DNA of 64,000 bases from a virus, in the IMG/VR virus record IMGVR_UViG_3300029267_003532, positions 15,956 through 79,955 of that record. One strand, 5' to 3'. Below the pieces are notes generated by a model. The model ran no database searches and was not told the origin of the DNA. It was given only the letters and a program-made list of their open reading frames with translations. Of the stretch, positions 19,560 through 63,219 are shown piece by piece; within the stretch, counting starts at the first letter, position 1; each line of letters opens with the position of its first letter. The position numbers and the translations under genes are program-made.

Positions 19560-19572
19560 TCAGCCAGCCTTT

Positions 19573-21716: not shown

Positions 21717-22198
21717 TACTGCACCTCGTCGATCAACGGCGTCACGGTCAAAACCTGATCTGTGCCTGTCGCCGTTAACGCCTGACCACTCTGGTTTATC
21801 ACTACCGGAAGGCCATAGCGCGCCGGTAGCGGAAATATCCAACTTGCCCGCTGAGGGTCGGTGTCATTTGATGCCACCAGTGACCCAACATAGTGGAGTC
21901 GCTTGGCGTCATCCTCGCTGTTATAGGCTGCGTCACTCCCGGAGCATTCACCGTCATAGTCGGTGCCGTCGTGCGAGCTGGACCAGTAGACGTCCACAAC
22001 CTCGCCTGCAGCGGGAGCTGCGTCAAAATCGACCTCTAGGCTGATCCGCGCGCGGGCAGCGTGTGTGGATTCGAAATCGTGCTCGTCTCCAGCGCGTCCA
22101 TTGCCGTCCGCCAGGCTCGTTAGCGTCAATGTCTCGTCGCCGCCCGCGCTCGTCCACACGATATCGGTGCCTTGTTTCTGCAGGACCTCATTAGTCAT
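21716..22198 (-). CDS. Virion structural hypothetical protein
   Basis: 160-aa beta-rich protein in the tail region; AGGTAGG RBS. Confidence 0.65.
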   Translation of the reverse strand: MTNEVLQKQGTDIVWTSAGGDETLTLTSLADGNGRAGDEHDFESTHAARARISLEVDFDAAPAAGEVVDVYWSSSHDGTDYDGECSGSDAAYNSEDDAKRLHYVGSLVASNDTDPQRASWIFPLPARYGLPVVINQSGQALTATGTDQVLTVTPLIDEVQ

Positions 22199-43773: not shown

Positions 43774-44850
43774 CTACGGCTCAATGTCCGCGTACACGAA
43801 CGCCGCAGGATAGTTCATTTGCGGCAAACGGCTGGTCTGTACGCGCACGTTCTCAGTTACAGCCTCGGCATTGATATAGGTCTCGGCCAGCGCGCCGGGA
43901 TTCTCGGCTACGACGATCTGTCCGTTGACCACACGGGCGACCGGACCGTCCTTCATTTCCATAATCGGCACACCTGCGACCGTATCCGGCCCGGTAAAGA
44001 GCACGTGCCCGGTATCCAGGAAGTAGTTGCGCGTGTCGACTTGGTCAGCCGAGGTGATATAGAACCCGTTCTCGATCCGGATCTCGCCGATGCCGAGAAT
44101 CTCGACCACTTCGGACATCTTGGGCGTGATGACGCGTGGGTCCGTACCCGAAAGTTCGTTCTTGATCCCCGTGTTCTTTTTCAGGTATCGCCAGACCCCG
44201 GTTCGGCAGTACATTGCAATCTCAGACTGGTCGACGCCCAGGTCATCGGCGATCAACTTGGACCAGTTGTACACGTCCTCGATGACGTCCGTGTCCGCCG
44301 CGCTCCAGGCTGCCGCGGCAGTCGGCTGGTGGGTCGACGTGAACCAACTGTTTTGCTCGTCGCCGTCCAGATCATAGTTCACCGCGATGGTCGTGCCGTT
44401 AAGATACGCAACCGACAGGTTGTCCTTGGCGGCTTCCCACGCCATCCACTTGGTCCGGTTTACGTTGCGCCGTCGCAGGCGCAGCGCCTTGCGTAGCAGG
44501 TCTTCAGCCGCAGACCGGGCGATCGCCTCGTCCGGACTGTGCAGGTTGATCATGTCGCTCGCCTTGAGGATGTCCTTTTCAGCGATCAGGAAGAGCTCCA
44601 TAAAGAGTTCGGTCTGATCGCCGGACCCCGACACGACCGGCGTATCGGCGTTGTCCGCCTTGAAACTGGCGAGGCCCGCGCCGTCGATGTGTCGCACGCG
44701 GAGTTTGATCCGGCGTGACATCGTCGTCGACAACGGGGCGAACGGAACGTCGTAAATCTCGCTCTCGTTGATCCGTCGCTCCACGACCCGCGTCAGGACG
44801 TGCGCGTCCTTGATGTCGACTGGCGACAGATAGTAGTCATTGGTTGCCAT
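43774..44850 (-). CDS. Major capsid protein (lambda gpE-like)
   Basis: 358 aa; RTKWMAWEA, VNYDL, WSAADTDVIEDV, SRLP pattern; GGAGG RBS. Confidence 0.85.
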   Translation of the reverse strand: MATNDYYLSPVDIKDAHVLTRVVERRINESEIYDVPFAPLSTTMSRRIKLRVRHIDGAGLASFKADNADTPVVSGSGDQTELFMELFLIAEKDILKASDMINLHSPDEAIARSAAEDLLRKALRLRRRNVNRTKWMAWEAAKDNLSVAYLNGTTIAVNYDLDGDEQNSWFTSTHQPTAAAAWSAADTDVIEDVYNWSKLIADDLGVDQSEIAMYCRTGVWRYLKKNTGIKNELSGTDPRVITPKMSEVVEILGIGEIRIENGFYITSADQVDTRNYFLDTGHVLFTGPDTVAGVPIMEMKDGPVARVVNGQIVVAENPGALAETYINAEAVTENVRVQTSRLPQMNYPAAFVYADIEP

Positions 44851-44890: not shown

Positions 44891-45310
44891 CTAGTCGTCG
44901 AAGACGCACGAAGGGAAGTACGTCTTGAGGTTGGTCAGAGACGTGCCGTGCAGCGAGTACCCGCCCATCGTCAATTCGCTCTTGTCGAACACGCATTGGG
45001 CATAGAGACCTGCCACCGCACGATCTCCCAACGTCACGTCGTGCGCTTCCCAGGTGAATACGACCTCGCCCTCGGCCGGTGTCTGTCGGCCATCGGTCGC
45101 GGTCTTGAGATAAGGACCGTATTTGCCCGCGCCCGTCCCCGTGTCGATCTTGACCAGAAACGTGCCGGGACTCAAGCGCCGGCGGCTCTTGGTGTCCGCG
45201 ACTACGGTGCTGGCATAGATGAGCACGGTCGTTTTGCGCTCGTTTCCGACCACGCTCTTGAGCGGGCTTTTGTTGGCCCAGGTGTTGGTTTCATAGTACG
45301 GCTGTGCCAT
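44891..45310 (-). CDS. Head decoration protein
   Basis: LSPGTFLVKI...GKYGPY...ATDGRQT; directly upstream of the capsid gene. Confidence 0.8.
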   Translation of the reverse strand: MAQPYYETNTWANKSPLKSVVGNERKTTVLIYASTVVADTKSRRRLSPGTFLVKIDTGTGAGKYGPYLKTATDGRQTPAEGEVVFTWEAHDVTLGDRAVAGLYAQCVFDKSELTMGGYSLHGTSLTNLKTYFPSCVFDD

Positions 45311-45345: not shown

Positions 45346-47043
45346 CTACCCGCCGAGGCTCTTGTCAAATGCGTCGATCGCCTCGTCCGGCAAAGCGCGC
45401 GCCGTTTCGGCGTCAATCGGCGCGGTTCGGTGACCTGGCTCTCGCCCTGGCCCGCTCACGTCCGCCATCGACCGATCTGGACGCACCGGCGCGTTCAGCG
45501 AAAAACGCGCTTCCTTGGGCAGCGCGTTGACGATTGCCAGCACGATACCGTCGACCGGCGACGTACCGTCATCCGCGATGTCAAAGCCCAACCCATCGGG
45601 CTGCAGCGCGGCCTGGACGGCCTGCACGACCACCGGATAGTGGCGCGTTCCCTCGATTACCGTGACGTCGTCGCGCTGCACGCGACCTTCCATCGCGGCC
45701 ACGATGCTGGAGACCTCAAGCCCTCGCGCTTTGGCTCGAAGCTGTACTTGGCGCTCCAGCGCCCCGTCCAGCGCAAACCCTTGTGCTCGCAGCACTCTGG
45801 CTTGTTCGAGCAATACGACGTCCTCCGGGCTCAGCGCGGGAGTCTGGTCTCGATTCTGCTCCTTAGTCATAAGTTCCTCCCTATACTGCGTGAATTGGAC
45901 CCCGGAGAACGAAGCCGCCACCGCGGTCGGCGCGACCCCGAACCCTTGCAGGTCCGGCAACTGTGGATAGTTGGTCAAAAGCAAGTGGACGAGCGCCCAC
46001 GGCCAAACCGTATCTGGATGGCTGCGGTCGTGAAAGTCAGCCCAGATGTACACGCTGCAATCGCGGATCAGCCCCTTATCGAGCTGTTCTCGCGTATCCT
46101 CGTCGCGTACATCCAAGCCGCCATACAGGTGCTGGCCCACCTTGACCAACCTGTCAACAAAACCGACCGTTTCACTGGCCGGCACAATCCCATCCGTCTC
46201 TACATGATGCGTGCTCGCCGTAATCGCGACGTGGTTGAGCGCGCGCCCCTCGAACGCTTCGTACATAGCGTCGATCATCGACTGGTCGACGGCTAAAGAT
46301 GTGCCTGTCTGTGGCCGGAACGTCGTCGAGACGCGAAAGATTTCCTTCCAGATCAGGCCGTTGTCGTCCGCGCCAATATCCGCGGGCAGCGAGACCGGGT
46401 CGCGCAGCGCCATGCTGAACACGCGGGGTGTGCCGCCCATGTCGGCAGCAAGAGAGGTATCCTCTGGCTGTGCCACTGGCTGCCAGACGCGCATCACCTC
46501 TTGTAGTTCTCCGAACGAGACCTCGTTCGCGTCGTCGATGATGTAGGGCAATTTGTGATAGCGCTCGCCGAGCTGGATGATGCAGTAATCCACGAACACG
46601 TCAGTCAGCCATGGATAGCGATAGGACCCGTCCGGCATCGTGACGTGTGCGTTTTCCAATGCTTCGCACAGCAACCCGCGAATGTCCTCAAACGACACAT
46701 CCTCGATGGCTGTGACAACCGATACGCCGCCGGCCAGCATAAACGTAGGTCGGTTCCGGGCTTGAGGTAGCCCAGCCTGCACTGACAGATTGACCCCCGT
46801 ATCTTTGACCTCGCGGACCCACTCCTGTGCTTTGTCCTCGGTGAACGTGCCACGGCTGAACACGAATGCGACGATGGTCTCGTCTTCGTCGCTGTAGAGC
46901 GCCTGCACACCCTGCTCTAGCTCACTGTCCAACAAGCGAAGGTCGCCGTAAGACTCCAGGCTGGTTACTCCACTCGCCTCAACGACGATACTGCGTTCTT
47001 TCAACTGACCAAGGTTCACGTCTGCCAATGGTCTGCTCCTCAA
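45346..47043 (-). CDS. Capsid maturation protease / scaffold
   Basis: H...VGFV...GLIRDCS...LLLTNYP..L Mu gpI-like protease pattern; true start probably TTG ~47028 after GAGGAG. Confidence 0.7.
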   Translation of the reverse strand: MRSRPLADVNLGQLKERSIVVEASGVTSLESYGDLRLLDSELEQGVQALYSDEDETIVAFVFSRGTFTEDKAQEWVREVKDTGVNLSVQAGLPQARNRPTFMLAGGVSVVTAIEDVSFEDIRGLLCEALENAHVTMPDGSYRYPWLTDVFVDYCIIQLGERYHKLPYIIDDANEVSFGELQEVMRVWQPVAQPEDTSLAADMGGTPRVFSMALRDPVSLPADIGADDNGLIWKEIFRVSTTFRPQTGTSLAVDQSMIDAMYEAFEGRALNHVAITASTHHVETDGIVPASETVGFVDRLVKVGQHLYGGLDVRDEDTREQLDKGLIRDCSVYIWADFHDRSHPDTVWPWALVHLLLTNYPQLPDLQGFGVAPTAVAASFSGVQFTQYREELMTKEQNRDQTPALSPEDVVLLEQARVLRAQGFALDGALERQVQLRAKARGLEVSSIVAAMEGRVQRDDVTVIEGTRHYPVVVQAVQAALQPDGLGFDIADDGTSPVDGIVLAIVNALPKEARFSLNAPVRPDRSMADVSGPGREPGHRTAPIDAETARALPDEAIDAFDKSLGG

Positions 47044-47100
47044 ACAAAAACAGGGGCCGGGACTGCGTCACAATTTCTGTGAACGCAATCCCGGCCCCTG
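47041..47100 (-). terminator. Long-stem intrinsic terminator in the leader of the capsid operon
   Basis: CAGGGGCCGGGA...TCCCGGCCCCTG stem followed by TTTTTGTTT, abutting the RBS. Confidence 0.75.
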
Positions 47101-47163
47101 TGGGACGGCTGGTGCGTCTATTCAATCTCGCCGTGTTTTCACGTCGTTTTAGACTATGGCTTC

Positions 47164-47193
47164 ATTATACCATACGGTATAGTTCACTGTCAA
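47164..47193 (-). promoter_or_regulatory. Late promoter 2 with palindromic operator
   Basis: TTGACA-N18-TATAAT, extended -10, TATACC-N4-GGTATA. Confidence 0.8.
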
Positions 47194-47429
47194 GCCGGTT
47201 TAGAACCTTTGTTCTGTTTGGCTGGCTTTGCACGTGGCGCGGGCGCTTTATCTTCCTCGTCAATCATAGATGCGATCTTTTCCGGCTGGGCCACCGTCGC
47301 CACGCGTGTCACTTCCCAGTTATGTATCCAGACAATATAACATCCAAATCGAACCGCGCGCAGTTTGTCCAGTAACGCCTGAAAGGTATTTGATTTGCGA
47401 ACGGTCACATTTGCGCCAAGCTGGCTCAT
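47190..47429 (-). CDS. Small YezD/DUF2292-like protein
   Basis: LDKLRAVRFGCYIVWIHNWEVTRV resembles the YezD pattern (tentative). Confidence 0.5.
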   Translation of the reverse strand: MSQLGANVTVRKSNTFQALLDKLRAVRFGCYIVWIHNWEVTRVATVAQPEKIASMIDEEDKAPAPRAKPAKQNKGSKPA

Positions 47430-48214
47430 AGGCATTCTCCTAATACTCGCCGGTCACCCCACGCCCCGGACTGACTGACATAGTAATTGTCCTGGATCTG
47501 GCTGACCATCCCCCGTCGTTGGTTGTAGAGCGGTCTCAGTCGAGCAATGTGTTTGTCTCTTGATTCGCCTCTGTGCCCCGAGCTATCGAGCGAGTTCTTG
47601 CGCTGGATATTGTGCAGATGGACCCGCAGATCCACCGCGCACTTGAACCCGCACACCGAGGCGCGATGCGCCATAAGCAGGTCCTCGAACCCATAAAGGT
47701 GGTCCTCAGCCAGCACATCAAAGTAGCCAGTCTCGTCCAAAAACCAGCCAGTGTGAATCACACAATGCCCGACCACCGGGAAATACTCGTGCCAGTACCC
47801 ATGCGCCTGGATCAACCGGCCTTGATTGGAGGTCTCCAATTCCTCATACCAGGGAGAGGCAATAGCTATCCCTGGGTTTGTTTCCAGCAAGTTGCACAGG
47901 AACGGAATCCACCCCTCGGTTTCCAGCTCGACGTCGTTATCGACCTTGATAAAGTGCTGCCCTGGCTTGCGCCTGGCTAACACCTGGTTTAGCGCGCGCG
48001 GACATCCAATGTTTTCAGAATTGCAGATCCAGTCAATTGGCCAGCCTTCCACTGCAATGGCTTGTGTGACGGCCTCGCGTGTCCCATCAGTAGAACCATT
48101 GTCTACCCAGACGCACTCCGCCATAGACATCGCCCTGGTGCACGCCAGCGAGCGCAACGTTGCGAGAGTCTCGTGCTTGCGGTTGTAGCTGATCACAGAA
48201 AGCAGCGGTTTCAT
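47426..48214 (-). CDS. GT2 glycosyltransferase
   Basis: VDNGSTDGT, KVDND, YGFED. Confidence 0.85.
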   Translation of the reverse strand: MKPLLSVISYNRKHETLATLRSLACTRAMSMAECVWVDNGSTDGTREAVTQAIAVEGWPIDWICNSENIGCPRALNQVLARRKPGQHFIKVDNDVELETEGWIPFLCNLLETNPGIAIASPWYEELETSNQGRLIQAHGYWHEYFPVVGHCVIHTGWFLDETGYFDVLAEDHLYGFEDLLMAHRASVCGFKCAVDLRVHLHNIQRKNSLDSSGHRGESRDKHIARLRPLYNQRRGMVSQIQDNYYVSQSGAWGDRRVLGECL

Positions 48215-49053
48215 TTGGCCCCTCCTGAGATGTATCGATGCACCTGCTCGTGGTTGTTCTCTGTGCACCATTCATCTCCCTCACGGTAGTGCAAGCCAGC
48301 CAGGTTTTCGTCGACGAGCCACCTCCCGAAATATTTCCCAAAGTACTGCCGGCCACCTCGCTTGCGCCGAGCGCCGGCTCGGTCCAGACCCTGGGCGAGA
48401 CTACGAAAGCAATAGTGCTTGCAGATCGGCATCAGCGGTCCGGCAACCTGCCACTGCCGCCAGTTCAGCCCCGGCAACTCTGGCGTCCGTTTGGGCACGT
48501 CAACCGGGTAGTAGTGGGCGTCGTTCCATTTCCAAATGAACGTCCCCATCTAGCCCCAGCTATACCATTGCCGGCGCTGCTGTACGCTGATCGTCTCGTC
48601 TTCGTTCAGCGCTCCCTCGCGCAAGTCCTGGAACGTCAACCAGAACTGAGGCACCCAACACCGGACCACGTTCGCGCCGGCTTCCTCTGCGGCATAGATC
48701 GCCGTGAGCGGATCGACGTCTATTCCATTCGGATCACAATACGAATCATAGATTTCGTCGGCATCAATCGACACGACCCAGTCCGGGCGGTGGGGCGCGG
48801 TCAGTTCGAGCAGCCGCCCGCGTAGCGTATAATCGTGAAACTCGTTGCCGGGGTCCCGTTCGCTCACAACCTGGAGCGTCTTGCCGGCTTGCCCGTGATA
48901 CGTTTTCTGCAACATCCAGAGCAGTTGTAGTGTACTGTCTGTACTGCTCCCATCTAGAACGATCAGCGTGTCAACCCAACGAAAGGCTTCAGTAACCGTT
49001 TCCTCGATCACATCTTCCTCATTCCGAACGGGCATATGCGCGACGATTTTCAT
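48211..49053 (-). pseudogene. GT2-like glycosyltransferase interrupted by one in-frame TAG (48550-48552)
   Basis: PVRNEED, LDGSSTD, IDADE upstream of the stop; the same frame continues TAG-ATG into ...CKHYCFRS. Confidence 0.7.
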
Positions 49054-49054
49054 T

Positions 49055-49714
49055 TCAGCCTCCAACATGCATGAACGAGACGCTTTTCTCGATCAAATCG
49101 CGTGGCACGCCGTTCAAGTGATCGAGAAACGAAGACGGACCCTCTTTGTCGAAATCAGTGATCATGGGCGCGTACTCGATGCACAGCAAATCGCAAATCA
49201 CCCGGCTATACTGATCCGGCATTCGCTTGACGTTGTTTCCCCCGGTCAAATCTTCGTACGACAACGTCAGGTCTGCCAGGCGACCACACCGGCGCATGTG
49301 CTCGGCGATCTCGCGCCGCTGCTCCGCATAGACGCGCGGCTCAAACTGAAACGTGGGAATCTCGCCTTTTGCCGCGCATTTCGGATGTTCCCCGCGCCAC
49401 GTGTGCAATTGGCCCGAAAAATAGATCGCGAGCATATTTCGCCGAATCAGTTGAATCACCTTTACCTGTGGCTCCGCCATCCATTCGGCGATGGGGGCCG
49501 TGATCTGATTGTACTTGATGTCCACACAGATCCACGGAAACCCGCCGCCAGACACGCGGCTCAGACGCGCGTGCATCTTGTCGGCCGTGTTCGGTTCGCG
49601 CCGGCAAAAAATCTCGCCAGTATATTTGATCGCCGGATGGCTCTGCAGCCACGAGCCCAGCAGGTGCGATCCACTGCGTTGGTGCGCCATAAGAACGACG
49701 TAGGCCACTACCAT
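49055..49714 (-). CDS. Sulfotransferase (Stf0-like)
   Basis: HQRSGSHLL PAPS loop, SHPAI..GEIF, LIRRN, SYEDL. Confidence 0.8.
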   Translation of the reverse strand: MVVAYVVLMAHQRSGSHLLGSWLQSHPAIKYTGEIFCRREPNTADKMHARLSRVSGGGFPWICVDIKYNQITAPIAEWMAEPQVKVIQLIRRNMLAIYFSGQLHTWRGEHPKCAAKGEIPTFQFEPRVYAEQRREIAEHMRRCGRLADLTLSYEDLTGGNNVKRMPDQYSRVICDLLCIEYAPMITDFDKEGPSSFLDHLNGVPRDLIEKSVSFMHVGG

Positions 49715-50832
49715 CCCTCCTGAATGCACCGGATCACATACGCGACGTCGTTCTCGTCCAGGTGATTGTGCAGCGGGATCGAGATGTTGGTTTCCTCATA
49801 TCGATCCGTGTTGGGCAGATCAGACCGGCGAGGGCCAAAGATCGAGTGCAGGTCGTTCCGAATGTGCACTACACTGACCTCGACGCCCTTATCGGCCATC
49901 ATCCGGCAAAAATCGTCACGCCGCTCCACGTGCATCGTAAAGAGCCAGTTGGCGCTGACGCGATCCTCTCGGCTCTCAAACAACGTCACACCTGGCACGT
50001 CGGCTAGCTCCTCGCGGTACAACCGTGCGATCATTGCTCGCTCAGCCAACAGCCCCTGAATCTGATCCAAGTTTCCCAGTCCGATCGAGGCAGACACGTC
50101 GTTCATGTGCATCTTGTATCCGACCTCGGACTGATCCCAGAACGAATATCCGTCCAGCCGTGGCACACGGTTGACGCGGTCGATCCCAAACCAGCGCCGC
50201 CGGCGAGCCTCGTCATAATCCTGTTGGGTCCGCACGGCCAGAAGACCGCCGTCCCCACACGTGAGTTGCTTGATCGCCTGAAACGAGGTCATAAAGAAAT
50301 CGCTAGTCAGCGCAACCGGCAACCCCTTGTACCGGGCGCCAAAGGCGTGCGCGCCGTCCTGGATTACCGGCAGACCGTGTCGATCCGCGACGGCTCGTAT
50401 CTCGTCCAGAGAGCACGGATAGCCGGCCCAATGCACGCACATAACCGCCTTCGTGCGCTCCGTGATCCGATGCTCGACGTCGCTCGGATCGAGGTTTCCC
50501 GTCTCGTACTGGATGTCGGCAAAGACCGGCGTCGCAAACTGCTCCAAGATCGGCGTGTTTGTCGCCGTGCATGTCTGCGCGACCGTAATCACCTCGTCAC
50601 CCGGCCCCACGTCACAGATTGCCAGCGCCAGACGCAGCGCTGCCGTGCCAGAGTTCAGCGCCACGCAATACGGAACCTCCAGCGCATCTTTGAGCTGCTC
50701 CTCAAACTCTTTGACCTTTGGCCCCTCGCCGATCCACAACCGTCCATCCTCGTGGACAGTCGTCAACGTCTGGTATGCGTTCAACGCCGCCTGCGGCGAG
50801 ACGTACGGCGCGAACATTTGGATTTTCTTCAC
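49708..50832 (-). CDS. DegT/DnrJ/EryC1/StrS PLP-dependent sugar aminotransferase
   Basis: NSGTAAL, DGAHAFG, SFQAIKQLTCGDGG. Confidence 0.92.
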   Translation of the reverse strand: MKKIQMFAPYVSPQAALNAYQTLTTVHEDGRLWIGEGPKVKEFEEQLKDALEVPYCVALNSGTAALRLALAICDVGPGDEVITVAQTCTATNTPILEQFATPVFADIQYETGNLDPSDVEHRITERTKAVMCVHWAGYPCSLDEIRAVADRHGLPVIQDGAHAFGARYKGLPVALTSDFFMTSFQAIKQLTCGDGGLLAVRTQQDYDEARRRRWFGIDRVNRVPRLDGYSFWDQSEVGYKMHMNDVSASIGLGNLDQIQGLLAERAMIARLYREELADVPGVTLFESREDRVSANWLFTMHVERRDDFCRMMADKGVEVSVVHIRNDLHSIFGPRRSDLPNTDRYEETNISIPLHNHLDENDVAYVIRCIQEGW

Positions 50833-51740
50833 TCGACCTCCCTACTGGGCACCGCTTTTCGTTCCCCGGCCTCCGCCACCAGCTTGGTATTCATTCGCTG
50901 CATATGGAGCATTTCCTCCTCAACTGTCGTTCGATCCGGGGTGAGAAATGGCTCCCATATCCGCGCAAATCGCGCCACATTTTTCGTGCGTAACGCGTCC
51001 CACTCAGTCCGCCCGCCGCCTTGCCATTGATAGTCGGTAGACTTCATCGCTGACGATGCATAGTGGAGCACGCCGGCGTCGATCTGCCACACGCGATAGC
51101 CCCACGACCGAACGCGAAACGACAGGTCTTGATCGTGCCCGTCGTAAATCTCAAACCCCTCGTCAAAGCGGAGCCCCCGGGCCAGCAGCTCAGGGCGGAG
51201 ATACGCGCATGCAAAATCAATGCTCTCTCCCTCCATAAATCCGCTAGGATGCTTGTGCTGCTTGTCGTGCACGTACCAGCGCCCATTCGGATTATGGTAC
51301 ACCGGACAAGGCGGCCCCTCCGGGCTTTTAGCCCCGCCGACGATTCCCACCTCTGGCCTGGTCTGTGCAAAATCGATCAAATTGGTCAACCAGCCCTGTT
51401 GGACTACCGTGTCTGCGTCGAGCAAGACGACCTGATACGGACCGTTCTCCAGTTGATCGATTTGATCCAGGGCCTGGTTCTGTGCTACCGGTAACCCACG
51501 GTTCGTGGAATTCTCAATGAACGCTGCGATCTCGACCTGTCCTAGAGCGCGGCATACTTCCATTTGGTCCAGGTAACCCTCGATGCACGCCCGCTCTTCC
51601 GATCCGTTGTCCACGATGACCCACCGCGCCGGGTGGATCGTATATCGAGCCAGAGAATCAGCGCACCGCACAAAATCCAGCGCATTGTTCCACGTCAGTG
51701 TAATGATGTAGGTTGGGAGCTGGCCTAAGAGTTGTGCCAT
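50829..51740 (-). CDS. GT2 glycosyltransferase
   Basis: IVDNGS, LLDADT, FDEGF..GHDQDLSFR. Confidence 0.85.
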   Translation of the reverse strand: MAQLLGQLPTYIITLTWNNALDFVRCADSLARYTIHPARWVIVDNGSEERACIEGYLDQMEVCRALGQVEIAAFIENSTNRGLPVAQNQALDQIDQLENGPYQVVLLDADTVVQQGWLTNLIDFAQTRPEVGIVGGAKSPEGPPCPVYHNPNGRWYVHDKQHKHPSGFMEGESIDFACAYLRPELLARGLRFDEGFEIYDGHDQDLSFRVRSWGYRVWQIDAGVLHYASSAMKSTDYQWQGGGRTEWDALRTKNVARFARIWEPFLTPDRTTVEEEMLHMQRMNTKLVAEAGERKAVPSREVE

Positions 51741-52414
51741 GACAAACCTCTCTCTTTTCCCACAGTCCACGCCGCCGCGATATGCGGCCCGCCCTCCGGA
51801 TCCCACAACTCGGCATAGATGTCGTACATTCCAAAGAAATTGACTAGCTTCTCGCGCGTCCACACCATGACATGATGCGGGTTGTGCGCGCAGTAGGACC
51901 AACCAAATGCCGGATGATCACCGTGTGGCGTCGTTACAATCAACCGACCCCCTGGTCTGAGCACGTGCGCCACATTTCGGCGAAACCCGTTCAGGTCGAG
52001 CGGATGCTCGATCACCTCGAGGGCCGTAACGACATCGAACCCGCACAGGTCATTGGCTACCAATTCGTCCGCCGTCAGCGCCCCAAAGTCGGCCACAAAG
52101 AACTGCCCAAGTTGCTCCGCTTCCCGGCACGTGCGACACGTCTTGACAAAGTCGGCGATCAGGTCCACGCCCCACACCTCGCAGCCTAGCTGCGCCGTCA
52201 AGTTTTTCGCCAACTGCCCACAGTTGCATCCCACGTCGAGCACCTTGGCCCCCGGCTCGACCTGCCCGCGCACAAACGCATACCGCGTCCAATACTCGCG
52301 CCCGCCGGGCTGCAGGCGATGGTTACTTGGATGTTGGTGAAACGGCGATCCAACCCGTTGCCACTCGTCACCCAACTCATCAGGAGAGGGCGGGGTCATT
52401 ATCGTTGTGATCAT
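51725..52414 (-). CDS. Class I SAM-dependent methyltransferase
   Basis: VLDVGCNCG, FDVVTALEVIEH, LRPGG. Confidence 0.9.
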   Translation of the reverse strand: MITTIMTPPSPDELGDEWQRVGSPFHQHPSNHRLQPGGREYWTRYAFVRGQVEPGAKVLDVGCNCGQLAKNLTAQLGCEVWGVDLIADFVKTCRTCREAEQLGQFFVADFGALTADELVANDLCGFDVVTALEVIEHPLDLNGFRRNVAHVLRPGGRLIVTTPHGDHPAFGWSYCAHNPHHVMVWTREKLVNFFGMYDIYAELWDPEGGPHIAAAWTVGKERGLSWHNS

Positions 52415-52977
52415 CGCTTTTTACAGAGGACTTTGAACGAAAACCGGAACCCGCCAAAATGCTCACAGCAGACAATGGACAGGTCTGCTAACTGATTCAG
52501 GACCTCGGCTCGAAAGTGATCCGGCCCAAACCAGTTGTAATGCTGAAATTGCCACGGATGGTGCTTGCTATGGCGCATTGGCGCGTATCGATTATCCGGC
52601 ACGACATGGGCCATCACGCCGCCCGGCTTGAGCACGCGCGCCATCTCGCGCATTGCCTGGACCGGATCCTGGAGTGACGGCAACACGTGACACGAGATCG
52701 CCGAATCGAATGTGCTATCCTCAAACGGCAAGTCGTGTACGTCATAACGGTAATCCACCTTGGACCGATCTGGATTCGGATCAATATTGACCATTCCTGG
52801 CAGATATTTCTCGCCACATCCGACGTGCAGGCATCTCGCTCGCGCCTGCGCTTTCAGCCAGTCCATTTGCACAAGATCAACGGCTCTTTGCCAAGCATCT
52901 CCAGAGAGACGTTTGCACTCGTTGTCCGTCATCGTATGCTCTTCGTTGCACAAATCACACCAAGAGGTATTGGTCAT
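52411..52977 (-). CDS. Class I SAM-dependent methyltransferase (type 11)
   Basis: LHVGCG, LPFEDSTFD, RVLKPGG. Confidence 0.88.
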   Translation of the reverse strand: MTNTSWCDLCNEEHTMTDNECKRLSGDAWQRAVDLVQMDWLKAQARARCLHVGCGEKYLPGMVNIDPNPDRSKVDYRYDVHDLPFEDSTFDSAISCHVLPSLQDPVQAMREMARVLKPGGVMAHVVPDNRYAPMRHSKHHPWQFQHYNWFGPDHFRAEVLNQLADLSIVCCEHFGGFRFSFKVLCKKR

Positions 52978-54008
52978 TGACTCACACTTTCTATCAGTTC
53001 CAGCCATACCTTCCATTGCGTCTCATAGGTATGCTCGAACCAAACTCGCTCACGCCACGCGGCAGCTCGTGCACGCGCCGGCTCAGGATGGACGAGACAG
53101 TTCATCAGCCCATGATACAACGTATTCGGCGCGTCGGCGATCAGTCCAAACTGACCTGGATACTCATCGCCCAGCACCTCACTGTAAGGCATAGGCGATG
53201 CCACGATGGGCACACCGGCTGCACCATATTGCATCGCCTTCAACGGACTCTTGCATCGGTTGAACTCCGTATCCTCGATCCAAGCAAGGCCAACGTCAAA
53301 CGAAGCAATCAACTTCCGCATCGATGCGAACCGTCTCCACGCGCACGCAGGCTCGACATACGTGCGTTTTCTCAGTGCAGGACTGAACGCTTGCACGATG
53401 TCAGGATACCCCAAGATCGACAAATAAGCGTCTTGCTCGCAAATTGCTTGCTCGACCGCGTCGGCGATCAGTCGCCACGTGTCCCAATAGTAGGGCATTC
53501 CGAACCATCCTACGACAGGTCCATCAATTGACTTTTCTTGTGGAATCACCGTGTCCCAGTCCGCCCACATCACGCAGTTGGGCACGATCCGCACATCGCC
53601 GTTGTGTTCAATCAACTTTTCCGCCAGGGCTGTGCCTGTACACGTCACCACGTCGGCCGTACACAACAACTCTTCGTGCCTCACCAGGCGCGCTTTGGGC
53701 GTTCCCGTACCCAGTTCAAAGTAGTCGTGATATGCCGGCCAAGTGGGCGGTAACTCAAAGAGCCAGTCATCGACGTCATAGATCACCGGCTTGCCGGCCG
53801 CCTGGAACGCCTGCATCAGCGTCACCGCAGCCTCTTCGCAATGCCGCTGCAGTACGAGTACATCAAACTCAGATACGTCGTCAAAGGACCCTCTGCGCGC
53901 CTCGGCCTGGATGCCCTGGTAGCGCAGAATCGTCGCCGGCGCGATTGCCCGAACGTATGCGTCAGCGCCATCGTTGCGAATCGCAAAAAGGACCTTGATA
54001 TCACTCAC
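52974..54008 (-). CDS. GT-B glycosyltransferase
   Basis: YDVDD, VGWFG, FNRCKSPLK..YGAAGVPIVAS. Confidence 0.85.
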   Translation of the reverse strand: MSDIKVLFAIRNDGADAYVRAIAPATILRYQGIQAEARRGSFDDVSEFDVLVLQRHCEEAAVTLMQAFQAAGKPVIYDVDDWLFELPPTWPAYHDYFELGTGTPKARLVRHEELLCTADVVTCTGTALAEKLIEHNGDVRIVPNCVMWADWDTVIPQEKSIDGPVVGWFGMPYYWDTWRLIADAVEQAICEQDAYLSILGYPDIVQAFSPALRKRTYVEPACAWRRFASMRKLIASFDVGLAWIEDTEFNRCKSPLKAMQYGAAGVPIVASPMPYSEVLGDEYPGQFGLIADAPNTLYHGLMNCLVHPEPARARAAAWRERVWFEHTYETQWKVWLELIESVSQ

Positions 54009-55062
54009 TCGTCACGCTCCTACTTGAACTCTGATCCGGCATCGAAACCACTGCGTCCATTGCCTGGATATGCGGAATGGGGAGAATAGGCCCAAACCGC
54101 CTATCGAGCGCGTCGGCGGCGAAATGCGTGCCGTCACGCGCGTCCAGATACTGGGCGACCAGTGACTGCCACACTTCTGAGGACACGCGCACGTCATAGT
54201 CGGCGAACGCACGCTCGTACATGTACCACAACCCGTGGAAGCGTATCAGCTTGCCCTTGCTATCCTCCAACCGACGCAGGATACCCTCCGCGCCCTGCAC
54301 AGGCTCTACTCCCAACAGCCACGCCGTTGCCTCCCGGTTGTCGCTCTTGTACGGGCTACGTTGGGGCACCAGCGCAAAGTCGTGTGCCTGGATCACTGCA
54401 TTCGCTCCTTCACGCGTCCACTCTACAAACGCGACCTGCCGGCCCTGGCCCCACGCACGCTCTTGCCACTCGTCTGGCAACTCGTTGGACAGAATCGTCA
54501 ACGGCATATCGTATTGATCTAGCACTGGCCACAGATCCGGCCAGATGTGATCGAGCTCGCCAAGGTTGTGCGCATACCCAAACCAGATACACCGGTCTTG
54601 AGCGGACGTCTCACGCCGCCTGCGTAACAGCGCATTAAAGCCGGCATTGTCCAACCGCTCAAACTCATCCAGGTCCAGTCTATCGACAATGACATACGCC
54701 GGCAGCCAGCGGGCCAACTGCTCTTCCAGGGCCACAGTCGGGCATACGGCAAAATCGCACAGCTCTAGCGCGTCGAGCAGACGATGCTCGTGCGTGTCTG
54801 ACTGCAGCCAGTCCGCATCACACAAATCGAACACCAACAGCTTGCCTTTGACGCGCAGCGCTCGCAGCCAACGACGCGCCTGCTTGGTCAAATACGCCTT
54901 CTGAAAGATATAAGCGTCGTACTCACCGAATGGTACCGAGCAGTTGGGGTATACGTCGGCGTTGTCCCAGTACTTGGCTGGCCACTGCGCCCGGAAGCGT
55001 ATGCTGGCCGAGTGATAGGGTAGCCCATCGACGTAAGCCGGGACAAAAAGCACTTTCATCAT
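54001..55062 (-). CDS. GT-B-like glycosyltransferase
   Basis: IFQK, FDLCD, WFGYAHN, KSDNR. Confidence 0.75.
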   Translation of the reverse strand: MMKVLFVPAYVDGLPYHSASIRFRAQWPAKYWDNADVYPNCSVPFGEYDAYIFQKAYLTKQARRWLRALRVKGKLLVFDLCDADWLQSDTHEHRLLDALELCDFAVCPTVALEEQLARWLPAYVIVDRLDLDEFERLDNAGFNALLRRRRETSAQDRCIWFGYAHNLGELDHIWPDLWPVLDQYDMPLTILSNELPDEWQERAWGQGRQVAFVEWTREGANAVIQAHDFALVPQRSPYKSDNREATAWLLGVEPVQGAEGILRRLEDSKGKLIRFHGLWYMYERAFADYDVRVSSEVWQSLVAQYLDARDGTHFAADALDRRFGPILPIPHIQAMDAVVSMPDQSSSRSVTSE

Positions 55063-56018
55063 ATTCTGACCCCCAGGTCGACCAGGAGGTCGAGCCAGTC
55101 TTGAACAAATCGATCCTTGTAAAACCGAGACCGCGCCAGCTCACGCCCGCGCTGGCCAACTTGATACGCTTTCTTTGGGTCCGCTCGCAGCATCTGAAGC
55201 GTCTCCACCATCTCGACCACCGTGTCACACAAAAAGCCCGTTTCACCGTGAGTAATGAACGTATCCGCGTCGTGGTTCGATGTCGTCACCACGCAGCATC
55301 CGCTGAGCATTGCCTCGGTTCGCGCCCCCGGCATCGGCGACCGCTGACCACAGTGGACATAGATCAGAGAACTCGCCAGAAACTCGCGGTATTTCTGGTA
55401 CGAGCTAAAATACGGCAAATCACCGCGATACCCCACCCACACCACCGGCATGTGCCGGCGTACCGCCTTAAGCATCGGAACACCGTGATACGACCGTGAA
55501 ATCGTGCCAGCCGAGCACACCGTGAACGCCATAGCAAGCCGCGTCCGGTCACTCGAAAACTCGTCCACGTCATACCCGTGAATGATCGCCCGGCTGCGCT
55601 CTGGCCCCAGGCCCCACTCTTCATAGGCCTGGTGGGAATTGACGACCAAGAAAGGCGGCCCGCCTGGCGACAGGTCCAGCATTCGCGCGATCCGGTCACG
55701 GTTCACGTCGTTGTCCGGCGTGCCGTGCATGATACCCACCCGCTCCGCTCCCCGCGCCTGCATTCCGATTAGGTTCATAATCCGAAAGGGCGTACCGCGC
55801 AGTTCGGACCGATCACACCAGTTATCCAGATGCGACAAGATCACGTCATAGCCGGCGGGATCGGGATCCTCGACGAATCCGCCAAAGTTGGGCGGGGTGG
55901 GGCGAATGTCTGTATCCCAGAATCGTGTCCCGACAGGAAAATAGTCGAATCGCGCCGGCAGGGCATGCAATCGGTAACTGTGTGCCTGGTGCCAAGCGTG
56001 GTCAAGAATCGAAAGCAC
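55059..56018 (-). CDS. GT4-like glycosyltransferase
   Basis: SPMPGARTEAMLSGCCVV, HGETGFL; GTG start after GAGGAG. Confidence 0.85.
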   Translation of the reverse strand: MLSILDHAWHQAHSYRLHALPARFDYFPVGTRFWDTDIRPTPPNFGGFVEDPDPAGYDVILSHLDNWCDRSELRGTPFRIMNLIGMQARGAERVGIMHGTPDNDVNRDRIARMLDLSPGGPPFLVVNSHQAYEEWGLGPERSRAIIHGYDVDEFSSDRTRLAMAFTVCSAGTISRSYHGVPMLKAVRRHMPVVWVGYRGDLPYFSSYQKYREFLASSLIYVHCGQRSPMPGARTEAMLSGCCVVTTSNHDADTFITHGETGFLCDTVVEMVETLQMLRADPKKAYQVGQRGRELARSRFYKDRFVQDWLDLLVDLGVRI

Positions 56019-56241
56019 TAGATATCTCCTCTTTATTGACTGCATCCAGTTCTTCCACAGCTCGGTGGAGCAGGTACAGAGCCCCAAGTACACCTACCGT
56101 GATCACCGTTACCCAACCTAGACCATTGAGCACGTATGTATCAAGGAACAACGCGATCAAGGCCAAGACCACGCCGGCCATAAAGCCCAGCAACATACCG
56201 CTCATAGAATAGAGCTTTTCGCGAAGTGAATATGTGTTCAT
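56002..56241 (-). CDS. Small two-TM membrane protein
   Basis: Two hydrophobic segments; ATGA overlap. Confidence 0.55.
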   Translation of the reverse strand: MNTYSLREKLYSMSGMLLGFMAGVVLALIALFLDTYVLNGLGWVTVITVGVLGALYLLHRAVEELDAVNKEEISSAFDS

Positions 56242-56978
56242 ATCACCTTCCCATGTCGATGCGCTACCGCGTACAGCGCGCCAGCAAACCACTCTGCGTC
56301 CGCGCGAACCGTGCGGACCACCGTATCCCGCAAATTGAGCCCCATCCCCTGCGCCTGGTCGAGCATCTCGTAAGGCAAAACCACTGTGTACGGATTCCAC
56401 TCTGCTGCCAGGCGAATGCAATCCTCGCAGTTCTCCAATGCCGGGTCCATCACCCACGTGACCAGCAGAATGTCCGGCGCGTCACCAGCCTCGATCTCTA
56501 GCCTGCACCCGCAGTTTGTCTTGCACCGCGTCTTTCCGTCACCGGGAACCTGGGGCAAGAGGCCATATGTAACCCCGCGCCAGAACGAGGCCAGCGCATT
56601 GCCTCCATATAGGCCCGACCGCGTCGCAATATACCCCTGGCTCTGCAAGTTCGCCAGGCCCAACGTCGCCATCTCGGCCCGCTCTTGCAATTGGTGCGCG
56701 AAATTGTCCAGATATCCATACTGATCGCGCAGGTAACGCCCCACACGCCCCCACTCGGCTTGTGTCACATTGCCTGGCTCACCGCCCCGACTGATGACCA
56801 GCGCCATGACGTGCAAGTCCTTGACCGCCTGGCGCATCTCTGTGCGCCACTCCAGGACAGATAGCTCGCCCGCGTGTAAGCGCTTTGCCAACTCGGCGGC
56901 ATCCTTTTGGAACGCCTCTTTGCGCAGCTCGACCAGGCCACGCGCGAATTCGAGATTGCGGACGCGAGGTGCAGGCAT
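56238..56978 (-). CDS. Minor head (Mu gpF-like) protein
   Basis: After the portal; CKTNCGC and NCEDC motifs. Confidence 0.7.
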   Translation of the reverse strand: MPAPRVRNLEFARGLVELRKEAFQKDAAELAKRLHAGELSVLEWRTEMRQAVKDLHVMALVISRGGEPGNVTQAEWGRVGRYLRDQYGYLDNFAHQLQERAEMATLGLANLQSQGYIATRSGLYGGNALASFWRGVTYGLLPQVPGDGKTRCKTNCGCRLEIEAGDAPDILLVTWVMDPALENCEDCIRLAAEWNPYTVVLPYEMLDQAQGMGLNLRDTVVRTVRADAEWFAGALYAVAHRHGKVI

Positions 56979-58630
56979 CAGCCGGCTTCCTCCTGGGCGC
57001 CGACCTCGACCGTCTCTAGCTCGTCGAGCTCGGGCATCTCATCCAGCATTCGCATCACCCGCGCGATGTCCGCGTCAGTAATGACCGCCGCGTCGTCGGC
57101 ATCGTTCGGCAGCGGATCGCGCAACATACGCTCCAACACCTCGCGCGAGGGATTTCTATCTGAGTCATAGTTGGGCGTCGCGGGCGGGGCTACCTGCTGC
57201 GCGGCCACGGCTGCCCTCACCGGCGTACCATCGCCGGCCGGCAGTTGCTCTTGCGTTTCCTCTGACATAGGATCACTCTCCGATCTGGCCGGCGCGCTCT
57301 CATAGACCGGCACGCCGAGGTGATGGGCCAGCCGGCCCGGATCGATCATCGTCGCCGCTTCGCTGTCCATCCGCTGCGCCAGAACCTGAAGCAGCGCGAA
57401 CAGCTCGCCGCGGTCGTACTCATTGAGGCCCGTCGTCACCTTTTCAACCCGCGCCGCGTCTGGCCCCCAGTTTACGTCGACCAGATAAGGAAACACGTAC
57501 TCGTTGAGGTGCATGTCGATGTCAGTCGCGTCCTCGATGATCAGGTCGACGGCCAACTTGCCCAGCACGTCACTCGTCGTCGGCCCGCCGAGGCTCGACT
57601 GCTGCACCTGCTGATAGAGCTGGAGGGGAATAAACATCCCCATGGCCTTGCGACTGTCACAATGATCCGTGAGACCGAGGAAAGCCGCGACATTCTCGCC
57701 ACTCTCCAGTAGCCTGACCGCCCACTTGCGAATCGCAGTCAGCTTGTCCAGCCCAGAAGCGTCGTCGTAGGCGCTATACACCGTGCTGGGCATCGCAATC
57801 GTCGCCCCGGCTCGAATGTCGTTGCCAATCGAAATCGCCGTATCGCTCAGATCGTTTCCGTCGCCATCCTTGCCCTCTGGATGCAACACCTCGACAGCGC
57901 GATCGACGAATTTCTGCACGTGGACCACAAGCTGATCGTAGCTGAACTCACCCATCCACCAGGCCTTATACGCATTACTCAACCGACCCACGCCGCTGTA
58001 TTTCCCGAACGCTTTTGCGCGGCCAATTGTCAGCCAGAGCGCATACACGCGATCCACTTTACCTTTGCTGTGGTGAAAGCCGATAAACTCGCCGGCCTCG
58101 CTGAATTCTGGATACGCCTCGACCGGGCTGACCTGATCGAAACCGGCGCAGATGAGAGGAATGGTCGCACGCCGCCACACAGGCGAAGCATCGGGGGCGA
58201 GGGGACGAGGCACGTCGAACCGCAGCTTTTTGATCAATCCGACACACCCTAGCGCCACGCCCATCGCAGCCTGGAGCATAAACTCGCGGTGAAACGCGCC
58301 ATACATCGCCTGGAAACACGCGCGAATCTCGGGGTCCGCACACTGTATCTCGTACTCGGCCTTGACCAACTTGCTGGCAATGTATGCCACGGAAAGCGCG
58401 ATCACGGGGTCGTCGAGCATCTTGAGCTTGGTCGCCATGCTCACCCGGCTGCCCTGGGTCAACTGACCATAGCGAGTGGTTGGATCACCGAGCAACTCGT
58501 ACATTGCACCCCACGTCGTGGTATAGCTGGGTCGCGATGTCTGAGGCGTCTCTGCGGCCACCTGGCCCGCCGGCGTCTTGCCGATCTTGGCGATAGGCGA
58601 CATTCCACTCGCGCTTTTTTCCTGGCTCAT
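56978..58630 (-). CDS. Portal protein (DUF935/Mu-like)
   Basis: 550 aa directly after the terminase; MLDDPVI, GRLSNAYKAW, LVDVNWG. Confidence 0.8.
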   Translation of the reverse strand: MSQEKSASGMSPIAKIGKTPAGQVAAETPQTSRPSYTTTWGAMYELLGDPTTRYGQLTQGSRVSMATKLKMLDDPVIALSVAYIASKLVKAEYEIQCADPEIRACFQAMYGAFHREFMLQAAMGVALGCVGLIKKLRFDVPRPLAPDASPVWRRATIPLICAGFDQVSPVEAYPEFSEAGEFIGFHHSKGKVDRVYALWLTIGRAKAFGKYSGVGRLSNAYKAWWMGEFSYDQLVVHVQKFVDRAVEVLHPEGKDGDGNDLSDTAISIGNDIRAGATIAMPSTVYSAYDDASGLDKLTAIRKWAVRLLESGENVAAFLGLTDHCDSRKAMGMFIPLQLYQQVQQSSLGGPTTSDVLGKLAVDLIIEDATDIDMHLNEYVFPYLVDVNWGPDAARVEKVTTGLNEYDRGELFALLQVLAQRMDSEAATMIDPGRLAHHLGVPVYESAPARSESDPMSEETQEQLPAGDGTPVRAAVAAQQVAPPATPNYDSDRNPSREVLERMLRDPLPNDADDAAVITDADIARVMRMLDEMPELDELETVEVGAQEEAG

Positions 58631-60361
58631 AATCGACCTCTATATCTGTGTTTCGCACTCGACTTGGGCACCGAGATACCCGTTTCTGCCTCATCCGGCC
58701 TGCGTAGCGTTTTCAACCGCTCCAGCGCCGCTTCTACATAGACATCGCTGTGATCATAGTGATCCGGCTTGCCTGTCCGAGGAAAGTGATAGAACACCGT
58801 CCCATCCGACTTGACCCCGCGCGCCTTCAGATTGACCGTCATCTGCTCGACCAGGCTGTCGACCGCCTCGAAATCCCTCGGCAAAATGTCGAGCTGGCCT
58901 TCGATGTTGCCGTGCGCCCGATCCAATCCGCTCGTACGCTCGACCCTGACTCGCTGCCGGCGAACGTCGAACTGGCACCACTCCGCGCCGGCGATCTCTT
59001 CGACATAGGTCGCCAGAAACACGCGCCCTCGATGCCTGCGCGCGAACGCCACGTCGGCCACCAGCTCTGGCCCATCGTCGACCACGCATACACCCACATT
59101 ATACCGGGCCATCAGTCGGTCGAGATCTTCCCACTGCACCATCTCGCCGATGAACACAGAGCGCCGTCGTCCGTCTGGCAACAACTCCTTGATCCACACG
59201 TGTAGCGTCCGACCAACGTCCACGCCCATCGCCGACCAGGGCGATGTCTGCGTGTCCGAGAGCAAATGCTCGCCGGCGCACGCGAGCATCAGCTCGAGGT
59301 TCAGCCGCGAACCCTTGGGCTCGTAGGGCTGCCCCATATCGTTGTTCCAAAAGGCCAGAATGTCAGCCTCTTGTGTCGACTGGGAGCGCAGCCACATCGC
59401 GACCAGGTCCGCGCGCGGGCTGATCAGTCTAGGCACCCAATACCCCACGGTCGTGCTCTCTGGGTTCTGCGCCACGAACCGAAGTCGGCCCTCTTGCCAC
59501 GCCGAGCTGCGATCGATAGCGACTCCGCATCCTGCATGTGGACACCATACTGCGACCGCGCCGTCTCGCTCGGCCACCAGGCCCCACGTCAGCAGACTCT
59601 CGTTGCCGCATGCCTGGCACCGGATCACCGGCTCGCGCTGATCGCTCTCCTGGTACACGGCATCGATGCCCACCCCCGGGTACGTCGGCGTGCTCAGTCC
59701 CAGCTTGATCTTGAATCGGCTGTCTCCGAGCCGGTCGTAGATTAGCGGGATCGCCGCCGGGGGAATGCGATCCCACTCGTCAATGATCGCAATGCGCAGC
59801 TTTGTCCGGGCGACCTTGCGGGATGTGTGTCCCGCGCAGGTAGAGAGCGCCGCGTTGGAACGTCTTGAGACCAACGTTGTCCGTGTCGCCGGCAGTCTTG
59901 CGCAACCGGGGGCTATGCGCGATCGCTGGGTCTACGCGCGTGTGCGCAAAGTCGCCGGCGATCCCCGATCCGGGAGGAAGCGCATAGAACACATTCAAGC
60001 CAAACTCGTCGATGCCATAGAACCCGACGTTCAGCGCGAACTCTGTCGCGCCTACCTGTGACGATTTGCGCAAGACGAACAATGGTGCGACGCACGTGCC
60101 GGCGTAGGCATCCAGTAGGACTGTTCCTATGTCATTGTAAAGGGGCATCAGCCAGGGATACTCGGCCAGGCTGAACGGGCTGTATTCCCGTGTTCGTCTA
60201 TTCTGTATGACTCGGTGCTGCTCCACCCACTGAAGAAACGTTTTCGTCGGCGGTCGAGTCGTCTGCTCTGGGGACAGGATCAGCGCCGAGATCTCGTCTT
60301 TCTCTTGCTCGGTCAAGTACTGCCACAAGTTGCGCAAGTCGCTGCTCGTCGGTAAGGCCAT
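58627..60361 (-). pseudogene. Terminase large subunit (lambda gpA-like), frameshifted near 59780-59800
   Basis: Walker A KSSQVGATE in 59780..60361; Walker B IIDEWD, STPT, CQAC, GVDVG and DHYDH in 58627..59874, a different frame. Confidence 0.85.
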
Positions 60362-63189: not shown

Positions 63190-63219
63190 ATTATACCAAA
63201 TGGTATAGATTCAAGTCAA
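63190..63219 (-). promoter_or_regulatory. Late promoter 1 with palindromic operator
   Basis: TTGACT-N18-TATAAT, extended -10, TATACC-N4-GGTATA. Confidence 0.8.

Follow-up and report, generated by a model that had tools for sequence, protein, structure and literature searches.

A candidate virion-glycosylation cluster in the packaging operon of an uncultured marine-sediment phage lineage

Introduction

Phage glycosyltransferases (GTs) are classically serotype-converting enzymes, as in the gtrABC systems, where the flippase GtrA, the membrane-anchored GtrB, and the polytopic GtrC act on sugars linked to undecaprenyl phosphate (Und-P). To our knowledge, glycosylation of the virion itself has been established experimentally for only a few mycobacteriophages, in which it shields the particles from antibodies. 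For the cluster O mycobacteriophage Corndog, an O-methyltransferase and three GTs, gp35–gp38, are linked to virion glycosylation (Freeman et al. 2023, as cited in PMC11600133, PMC12363180, and PMC12619734), and the glycans of this type of system are placed at the C-termini of capsid and tail-tube subunits (PMC12619734, citing Freeman 2023). In the cluster F mycobacteriophage Che8, three tandem GTs (gp108–gp110) are required for capsid glycosylation (PMC12363180). Here we describe a ~9-kb cluster of predicted glycan biosynthesis genes, at positions 47426–56241 of a 64,000-nucleotide stretch of viral DNA (positions 15,956 to 79,955 of IMG/VR record IMGVR_UViG_3300029267_003532), which we call the window. 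The window covers the final 64 kb of this record, a single contig of 79,955 bp for which CheckV estimates a completeness of 92%, and derives from an uncultured phage of ~80 kb of marine/sediment origin. Based on sequence comparisons and structure models, we think it fairly likely that this cluster glycosylates the phage’s own virion proteins.

The preliminary description of this DNA had noted that some actinobacteriophages glycosylate virion proteins with GTs encoded among structural genes. The Corndog record bears out this analogy, as it lists the portal (gp34), a TylF-like methyltransferase (MT; gp35), the GTs (gp36–38), an S78 protease (gp39), and the major capsid protein (MCP; gp41), which puts the MT and three GTs in the identical portal-to-protease slot. 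In both phages, soluble GTs and an MT are encoded on the same strand between the portal and the protease and capsid genes (the protease of the window, g565, being assigned by position only), and the presumed job is the decoration of virion proteins. However, the Corndog enzymes are small GT-A/GT25-like proteins plus a TylF-type MT, whereas the cluster described here encodes three GT4-like GT-B enzymes, three family 2 GTs (GT2), and class I MTs; it is also threefold the size and has genes for two further kinds of enzyme, an aminotransferase and a sulfotransferase. The two phages also differ in head type: S78/HK97 in Corndog, a Mu-type portal with lambda D/E-like capsid proteins here. What is shared with the mycobacteriophage system is thus the gene arrangement and the presumed role, whereas the protein families differ. 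Unlike here, the Che8 GT genes map to the right end of the genome, at a distance from the head genes. As for gtrABC, the likeness is limited to being phage-encoded and including GT2 enzymes; GtrA, a membrane-anchored GT, and a polytopic GtrC are all absent from our locus.

Two more distant systems are relevant. Serine-rich-repeat adhesins are glycosylated in the cytoplasm by the O-GlcNAc transferase GtfA-GtfB, a pair of adjacent GT-B proteins of which one lacks the catalytic motif; this pair starts the glycan, and further soluble GTs then extend it. The strict pairing of two GT-B genes of our cluster, GTB1 and the apparently degenerate g353, may follow a similar logic. However, no specific homology was found, the head cluster has no serine-rich acceptor gene next to it, and the locus belongs to a phage rather than to a secretion system. 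In giant viruses, namely, the chloroviruses with their capsid glycans and the mimiviruses with their fibril glycans and DegT-type aminotransferases, virus-encoded amino and methylated sugars coat the particle, and the glycan clusters are independent of the host endoplasmic reticulum or lipid carriers. These viruses differ from ours in having eukaryotic hosts and unrelated genes and capsids, and we know of no description of sulfation in their glycans.

Gene content of the cluster

All genes of the cluster lie on the minus strand, and the interval starts and ends with open reading frames (ORFs): 47426 is the stop of the GT2 gene GT2c and 56241 is the ATG of small79. Every gene listed in the preliminary description of this ~9-kb run was recovered, including one GT-B enzyme, g353, that could be recognized only by its fold.

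The three GT-B genes lie near the upstream end. GTB1 (55059–56018) encodes a GT4-like enzyme of 319 aa that matches Glyco_trans_1_2 and Glycos_transf_1 with E values of 3e-9 to 1e-7. It is the most conserved enzyme of the core, with 264 homologs, all metagenomic. The next gene, g353 (54001–55062), has no Pfam match. Its AlphaFold 2 (AF2) model, with a predicted local distance difference test (pLDDT) score of 89.5, matched HepE, BshA, MshA, and glycogen synthase in Foldseek at E values of ~1e-7, which identifies a divergent GT4-like GT-B fold at the level of the model, so the count of three GT-B enzymes is correct. Gtf3/GtfC structures were also among the Foldseek matches of g353, at ranks 20–34, the top matches being generic GT4 enzymes. 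The g353 family is small, with 219 representatives among 1.84 billion proteins. GTB3 (52974–54008) matches Glyco_trans_1_2 (6.5e-7), Glyco_trans_1_4 (2.8e-6), and phrog_7162 (2e-27), and its best identity to proteins of isolate phages is at most 29%. When the EX7E motif of GT4 enzymes was placed by eye, GTB1 kept the second glutamate (‘TEAMLSG’, in the C-terminal domain), a position held by threonine in g353 and by lysine in GTB3; by the same placement, g353 lacks both glutamates of the motif.

Two class I S-adenosylmethionine-dependent MTs follow, MT1 (52411–53016; Methyltransf_11, 7e-14) and MT2 (51725–52414; Methyltransf_23/12/11, ~1e-13). Neither reached an NCBIfam equivalog cut-off; both are generic, and their nearest models are small-molecule MTs. 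Three GT-A enzymes are encoded further along. GT2a (50829–51740) and GT2c (47426–48214) were assigned to family 2 by Pfam and carry DAD and DND motifs, respectively, and the ORFs GT2b and g112 together form one GT-A gene with a DAD motif (48211–49053) that is split by a TAG codon in this record. Between GT2a and GT2b lie the two genes that set the cluster apart. The first (49708–50832) encodes a pyridoxal phosphate-dependent sugar aminotransferase of the DegT/DnrJ/EryC1 family, in the class of nucleoside diphosphate (NDP)-4-keto-sugar 4-aminotransferases, with a full-length match to PF01041 (E 3.4e-88, residues 33–370); its nearest NCBIfam models are PseC, ArnB, LegC, and WecE, all under their cut-offs.

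The second, Sulfo224 (49055–49714), was assigned by an AF2 model and Foldseek to the sulfotransferase fold that uses 3′-phosphoadenosine-5′-phosphosulfate. Its Pfam match (4e-4) covers only the P-loop, ‘HQRSGSH’, and is below the gathering threshold. The model (pLDDT 91.5) matched heparan-sulfate 3-O-sulfotransferases best (E 1.4e-5, TMq 0.61), followed by tyrosylprotein sulfotransferases (E 8e-5 to 6e-4). The motif ‘HQRSG(S/T)H’ is kept in most of nine aligned relatives, with no invariant column listed within it. The model confirms the sulfotransferase fold and leaves a sugar or a tyrosine as the candidate acceptor. Searching the PDB by sequence with Sulfo224, the g353 profile, and two tail proteins gave either nothing or insignificant matches.

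Two small genes bracket the enzymes. At the upstream end, small79 (56002–56241) encodes 79 aa with two hydrophobic, transmembrane (TM)-like segments, and its ATG overlaps the stop of the preceding gene g246 (ATGA). It is not conserved: the related contigs L005 and L006 have no ORF there and other relatives have unrelated tiny TM ORFs, which places this predicted membrane protein outside the conserved system. At the downstream end, g81 (47190–47435), a small basic protein with a homolog in L005/L006, is the last gene of the coupled unit. All the enzymes of the cluster are without TM segments.

We also looked for lipid-carrier and DNA-modification genes in the 92%-complete genome. The GtrA flippase family PF04138 was absent while its controls matched. 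The priming and lipid-carrier GT families PF02397 (Bac_transf, WbaP type) and PF00953 (Glycos_transf_4, WecA type) were absent too. Together with the lack of TM segments, this agrees with the earlier statement that no flippase, polymerase, or Und-P machinery is encoded. A ThyA-like hydroxymethylase (PF00303) was likewise absent, with a control that matched in 10 genomes. A Tet_JBP search gave no match in the genome, but its control was also silent, so this result is weak.

Conservation and operon structure

The position of the cluster was compared across 35 related loci fetched by profile scans; searching viral and genome contigs with a single portal sequence had given nothing. Such a survey had been suggested in the preliminary description, and by its result 9 of the 10 related metagenomic lineages, whose portals are 39–77% identical, carry the cluster at this position. 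The order portal, g246, GTB1, g353, GTB3, MT onward, g565 is shared by the window and by L003/4, L005/6, L015, L016, L018/19, L020, L021, and L035. L001 shows only the start of the cluster, its contig being a 71% fragment. The only relative without the cluster is L022, in which the portal-g246 region leads directly to g565, the decoration protein, and the MCP. In Mantel tests on pairwise identity matrices of nine lineages, the portal correlated with GTB1, g353, and GTB3 at r 0.89–0.91 (p ~2e-4), a coarse measure as the nine taxa fall into two subclades; the value for portal against TerL was 0.80. This strong correlation indicates that the GT-B trio and the head module have been passed on together from the root of the clade onward.

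The periphery of the island is variable. Depending on the relative, it includes a UDP-sugar dehydrogenase, NAD-dependent epimerase/dehydratases, an AMP-binding enzyme, a radical-SAM-like gene, a clear Sulfotransfer_3 protein (8e-15), and an MT fused to a GT2. This variability suggests that an exposed surface structure is under diversifying selection.

Between TerL and g81, all genes overlap their neighbor by 1–43 nt or are 1 nt apart from it, which upholds the tight coupling with the packaging genes reported earlier, and neither an internal sigma-70-like promoter nor a credible terminator was predicted in this unit. In it, eleven predicted soluble enzymes are coupled translationally to the terminase, portal, and g246 genes that precede them. 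The glycan genes are, because of these overlapping junctions and the lack of predicted internal signals, the 3′ part of the packaging operon and a unit separate from the capsid operon. This separation suits enzymes needed in catalytic amounts. Directly after g81 is a consensus sigma-70 promoter (47164–47193, minus strand; TTGACA, an 18-nt spacer, TATAAT, and TG; 12/12), and the same 12/12 promoter precedes the g565 homolog in L005/L006 and in the cluster-free L022. A probable promoter of the packaging and glycan operon lies upstream of the packaging genes (63190–63219, minus strand), and both promoters carry, across the −10 box, an operator-like TATACC-N4-GGTATA palindrome. The packaging-glycan operon is probably co-regulated with the high-output capsid operon, judging from these shared elements; no antiterminator or operator-binding protein was identified for the palindrome promoters. 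The leader before g565 contains a long hairpin followed by a U-run that resembles an intrinsic terminator (47040–47101, minus strand; fold z-score −6.6), and L022 also has an analogous hairpin and U-run. This layout of capsid promoter and hairpin/U-run resembles lambda pR′/tR′.

The GTB1-g353 pair beyond the clade

A GTB1 profile search of IMG/VR returned 113 contigs, of which 80 were kept (L045–L124). These are mostly phage contigs of ~30–42 kb, at 28–35% identity. Of the 80 loci, 77 have a member of the g353 family after GTB1, with a median gap of 4 nt, and the pair is also found in all nine near relatives. Other neighbors of the pair in these 80 loci are MTs (52), polysaccharide deacetylases (23), GT2b-like genes (21), NDP-sugar dehydratases (18), Sulfo224-family genes (10), and DegT genes (6). 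Head genes were counted in the 50 loci with at least 8 kb of downstream sequence. Same-strand downstream genes encode S78 prohead proteases in 27 of them, HK97 MCPs in 18, ParB_N-domain proteins in 17, and TerL in 11, and unassigned proteins of ~460 aa, which are candidate portals, occur in 21 of the 50 regions. In example loci, a further GT-B gene is found between the putative portal and the protease, just before the latter. Since the pair recurs in 77 of 80 contigs, GTB1-g353 is, as far as gene neighborhoods tell, a recurrent phage module that adjoins or lies within packaging and head gene sets belonging to two head types unrelated to each other. As a general layout, the phages of this second group, with HK97-type heads, have big glycan clusters that end in GTB1-g353 and, on contigs that extend far enough, precede the ParB_N-domain, TerL, putative portal, extra GT-B, S78 protease, and MCP genes.

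We found no published description of the clade, of the GT-B pair, or of the aminotransferase and sulfotransferase additions, and it is these that are new here.

Candidate acceptors and the tail glyco-cluster

A second glyco-cluster is present in the tail module (28385–33280, minus strand). It includes a probable tail GT-B of 469 aa (31871–33280; E 8e-5, below threshold), a protein that combines a P-loop domain (‘GTGRCGTG ... IHLIRHP’), a GT2 domain, and an unknown domain (29965–31875), and a GH5-like protein of 526 aa (28385–29965; Atlas leads 0.89). The preliminary description had counted eight GT domains and two sulfotransferase domains in the phage. The recognition of g353 by fold helps the first count, which still needs the weak, sub-threshold call of the tail GT-B. 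As for the second count, Sulfo224 stands, whereas the tail P-loop domain is not supported as a second sulfotransferase: it shows motif resemblance only, with an hhalign E value of 0.11 against the Sulfo224 family and nothing in Pfam.

Just downstream of the tail glyco-cluster, a tail-region protein of 405 aa (27306–28523, minus strand) carries a Thr/Ser tract of ~65 aa, with 88% Ser/Thr in the best 25-aa window. No other credible ORF of the genome contains a mucin-like tract. The protein is a plausible candidate O-glycan acceptor, though it belongs with the tail cluster.

Possible functions of the cluster

We propose that a cytoplasmic, phage-encoded system builds a decorated oligosaccharide on virion proteins late in infection. 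GTB1 and its constant partner g353 would start the glycan on a protein acceptor. The g353 protein has a GT-B fold that lacks the EX7E glutamates, and because of this it may be a non-catalytic or acceptor-binding subunit, as GtfB is for GtfA. GTB3 and the three GT-A enzymes would extend the glycan. As the phage has no dehydratase of its own, DegT could make a 4-amino sugar from a host-made NDP-4-keto sugar, and the two MTs and the sulfotransferase would tailor the product. The candidate acceptors are a head, decoration, portal-associated, or tail protein. We infer the capsid itself as a possible acceptor.

Several observations point to virion glycosylation: the composition and predicted solubility of the enzymes, the coupling of the genes, the conserved slot, the co-divergence with the portal, the Corndog analog, the recurring GTB1-g353 pair, and the lack of carrier genes. 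The tail Thr tract also speaks for it, as it suggests that the phage has at least one typical candidate O-glycan acceptor. Other observations weigh against this proposal. A search of the head proteins found no Ser/Thr-rich tails or extensions in the MCP or the decoration protein, and a consensus promoter and a terminator divide the cluster from the capsid genes. No NAD-dependent epimerase/dehydratase was found in the genome to feed DegT. In blastp, all 13 glyco-proteins of the window gave a best E value of only 0.034 against Corndog gp35–38 and Che8 gp108–110. In relatives, the slot also holds an M23 peptidase, PA14 and LamG proteins, an HNH gene, and an intein, and because of this unrelated cargo the slot must be viewed as partly an insertion hot spot. 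Finally, tyrosine, and not a sugar, could be the target of the sulfotransferase. Its modeled fold fits protein-tyrosine sulfotransferases nearly as well as glycan sulfotransferases, and a sulfated glycan is a tentative product.

The cluster might instead be a moron in the head operon that remodels a host envelope glycan, such as lipopolysaccharide, capsule, S-layer, or another surface glycoprotein, during lysogeny or infection, with superinfection block or serotype change as the outcome. This would be the classical role of phage GTs, and it would fit the presence of GT2 families, a weak GtrB-like PHROG match in the tail GT2, the small two-TM protein that opens the cluster, and the foreign cargo taken up by the slot in relatives. 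A profile of the g353 family also matched at least one protein in 139 of 401 Planctomycetota genomes (E <= 1e-8), albeit with weak scores and with a single phylum searched, that is, with no control phylum. However, the enzymes have no TM segments, no GtrA, WbaP-type, or WecA-type gene is encoded, and close relatives either lack the small TM ORF or carry other sequence in its place. The junctions overlap within a late packaging operon with no predicted internal promoter, and the core trio has co-diverged with the portal at a depth where morons normally turn over. We therefore regard host remodeling as unlikely. A product that stays off the virion seems to us rather improbable, be it a free or secreted glycoconjugate, a small molecule, or a modified host protein acting, for instance, in lysis, aggregation, or a matrix, or else the direct sulfation or methylation of proteins. 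The match of the Sulfo224 model to tyrosylprotein sulfotransferases, the generic class I MTs with small-molecule enzymes as nearest models, and the AMP-binding and radical-SAM-like genes added in relatives would all be compatible with such a product. On the other hand, no export or lipid-carrier function is encoded, and two head-module types that are unrelated to each other both have the module by or within their packaging and head genes.

The cluster also adjoins the packaging genes, and a DNA methylase gene lies upstream in the same operon, as might be expected if sugars were added to the phage DNA before packaging as a protection from restriction. Indeed, the alpha- and beta-glucosyltransferases of phage T4 have a GT-B fold. 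Viral GTs that hypermodify DNA with diverse glycans are also described (Pyle 2024, as cited in PMC12619734). Nevertheless, there is no ThyA-like dCMP/dUMP hydroxymethylase in the 92%-complete genome, and a set of six GTs, an aminotransferase, two MTs, and a sulfotransferase far exceeds any described DNA glycosylation system. In addition, it is the proven protein-glycosylating genes of Corndog that occupy the same slot. DNA hypermodification is thus, in our view, very improbable.

Virion glycosylation remains our preferred reading, and its genomic logic recurs here in a marine-sediment phage lineage unrelated to the mycobacteriophages, with different enzymes and a richer predicted chemistry that includes an amino sugar and sulfation. 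Such systems can be sought with the GTB1-g353 pair as a marker, which has so far brought up more than 100 viral contigs. It is possible, though doubtful at present, that widespread marine/sediment phages, comprising the 80-kb clade and more than 100 smaller HK97-type phages of IMG/VR, coat their particles with a glycan that bears amino, methyl, and sulfate groups and is started by GTB1 and a degenerate g353. If so, a bacterial virus with a sulfated glycan would be described for the first time, and the two-protein GT-B initiator, with no earlier description, would define a new protein-glycosylation system. Should virion glycosylation be confirmed, sugar coats on phage particles would be common in nature, and the enzymes would amount to a compact, soluble protein-glycosylation toolkit independent of lipid carriers. 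It would also raise the question of the role of a sulfated coat in habitats rich in sulfated polysaccharides and in sulfatase-rich hosts.

Flanking genes, record, and host

The operon that contains the cluster includes a gpA-type TerL (58627–60361, minus strand; two reading frames in this record), followed by a Mu-type portal protein (56978–58630, minus strand; Portal_Mu, E 4.6e-6) and g246 (56238–56978, minus strand), the portal-adjacent gene that forms the upstream flank of the cluster and matches phrog_24776, a family with no function assigned. Downstream are g565 (45346–47028, minus strand), a putative prohead protease or scaffold assigned by position, a lambda gpD-like decoration protein (44891–45310, minus strand), and a gpE-like MCP (43774–44850, minus strand), with the tape-measure gene and then tail genes further on. 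The flanks had been labeled ‘minor head’ and ‘capsid protease’. These labels hold for position but have no family support: that of g246 reflects its position only, and g565 has no match in Pfam, PHROG, or NCBIfam, its Atlas leads being weak (0.87–0.88 to Mu-like_Pro, DUF2213, and YonD_N). In L022, the portal and the g246 homolog form a single ORF of 775 aa (L022:4989–7316), which supports a portal-associated role for g246.

Two genes appear broken in this record. GT2b has an in-frame TAG at 48550–48552, where two relatives have a single ORF with a His codon. TerL is divided into two frames (59780–60361 and 58627–59874) by a frameshift at ~59792, just before Walker B, and relatives have one ORF. 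The idea of a decaying element, which these defects might suggest, was rejected on the basis of public contigs. In Logan contigs from three metagenome runs, belonging to three studies, that were aligned to the window, position 48551 is C in most or all cases (T>C on the plus strand), giving TGG (Trp) on the coding strand, and the TerL frame is restored by 23 nt inserted at 59792, exactly where the contigs matching the window stop. Because public contigs carry the TGG codon and the 23 extra bases, both GT2b and TerL are, by this comparison, intact in the population, and the TerL split is likely an assembly or variant artefact rather than a sign of a dead terminase. A diverged co-occurring strain was also seen, in which 56003–56246, the region of small79, is replaced by 23 nt.

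The host is tentatively placed in the Planctomycetota. Megablast of 17.5 kb of the window against isolate phages gave no match, and portal homologs were found in metagenomes only, two of them binned in metagenome-assembled genomes of Planctomycetota (one Phycisphaerae and one Pirellulales). The Anaerolineae label of one GTB1 homolog points elsewhere. The g353-type matches in Planctomycetota genomes are mostly on large chromosomal contigs, with scores far below those of the phage relatives, and are a weak lead on the host or on the origin of the gene.

The islands of some relatives have features of their own. In L015, the g246 homolog (L015:11871–13796) contains an intein (Intein_splicing/Hint domains), and a homing endonuclease gene of the HNH/NUMOD4 type is found nearby within the island (L015:15726–16373). 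The island of L016 encodes a protein of 854 aa with an M23 peptidase domain (L016:7866–10430), and that of L004 encodes PA14- and LamG-domain proteins (L004:16916–17746 and 19038–20996) that resemble the 649-aa LamG minor-tail-like protein of the window (19893–21842).

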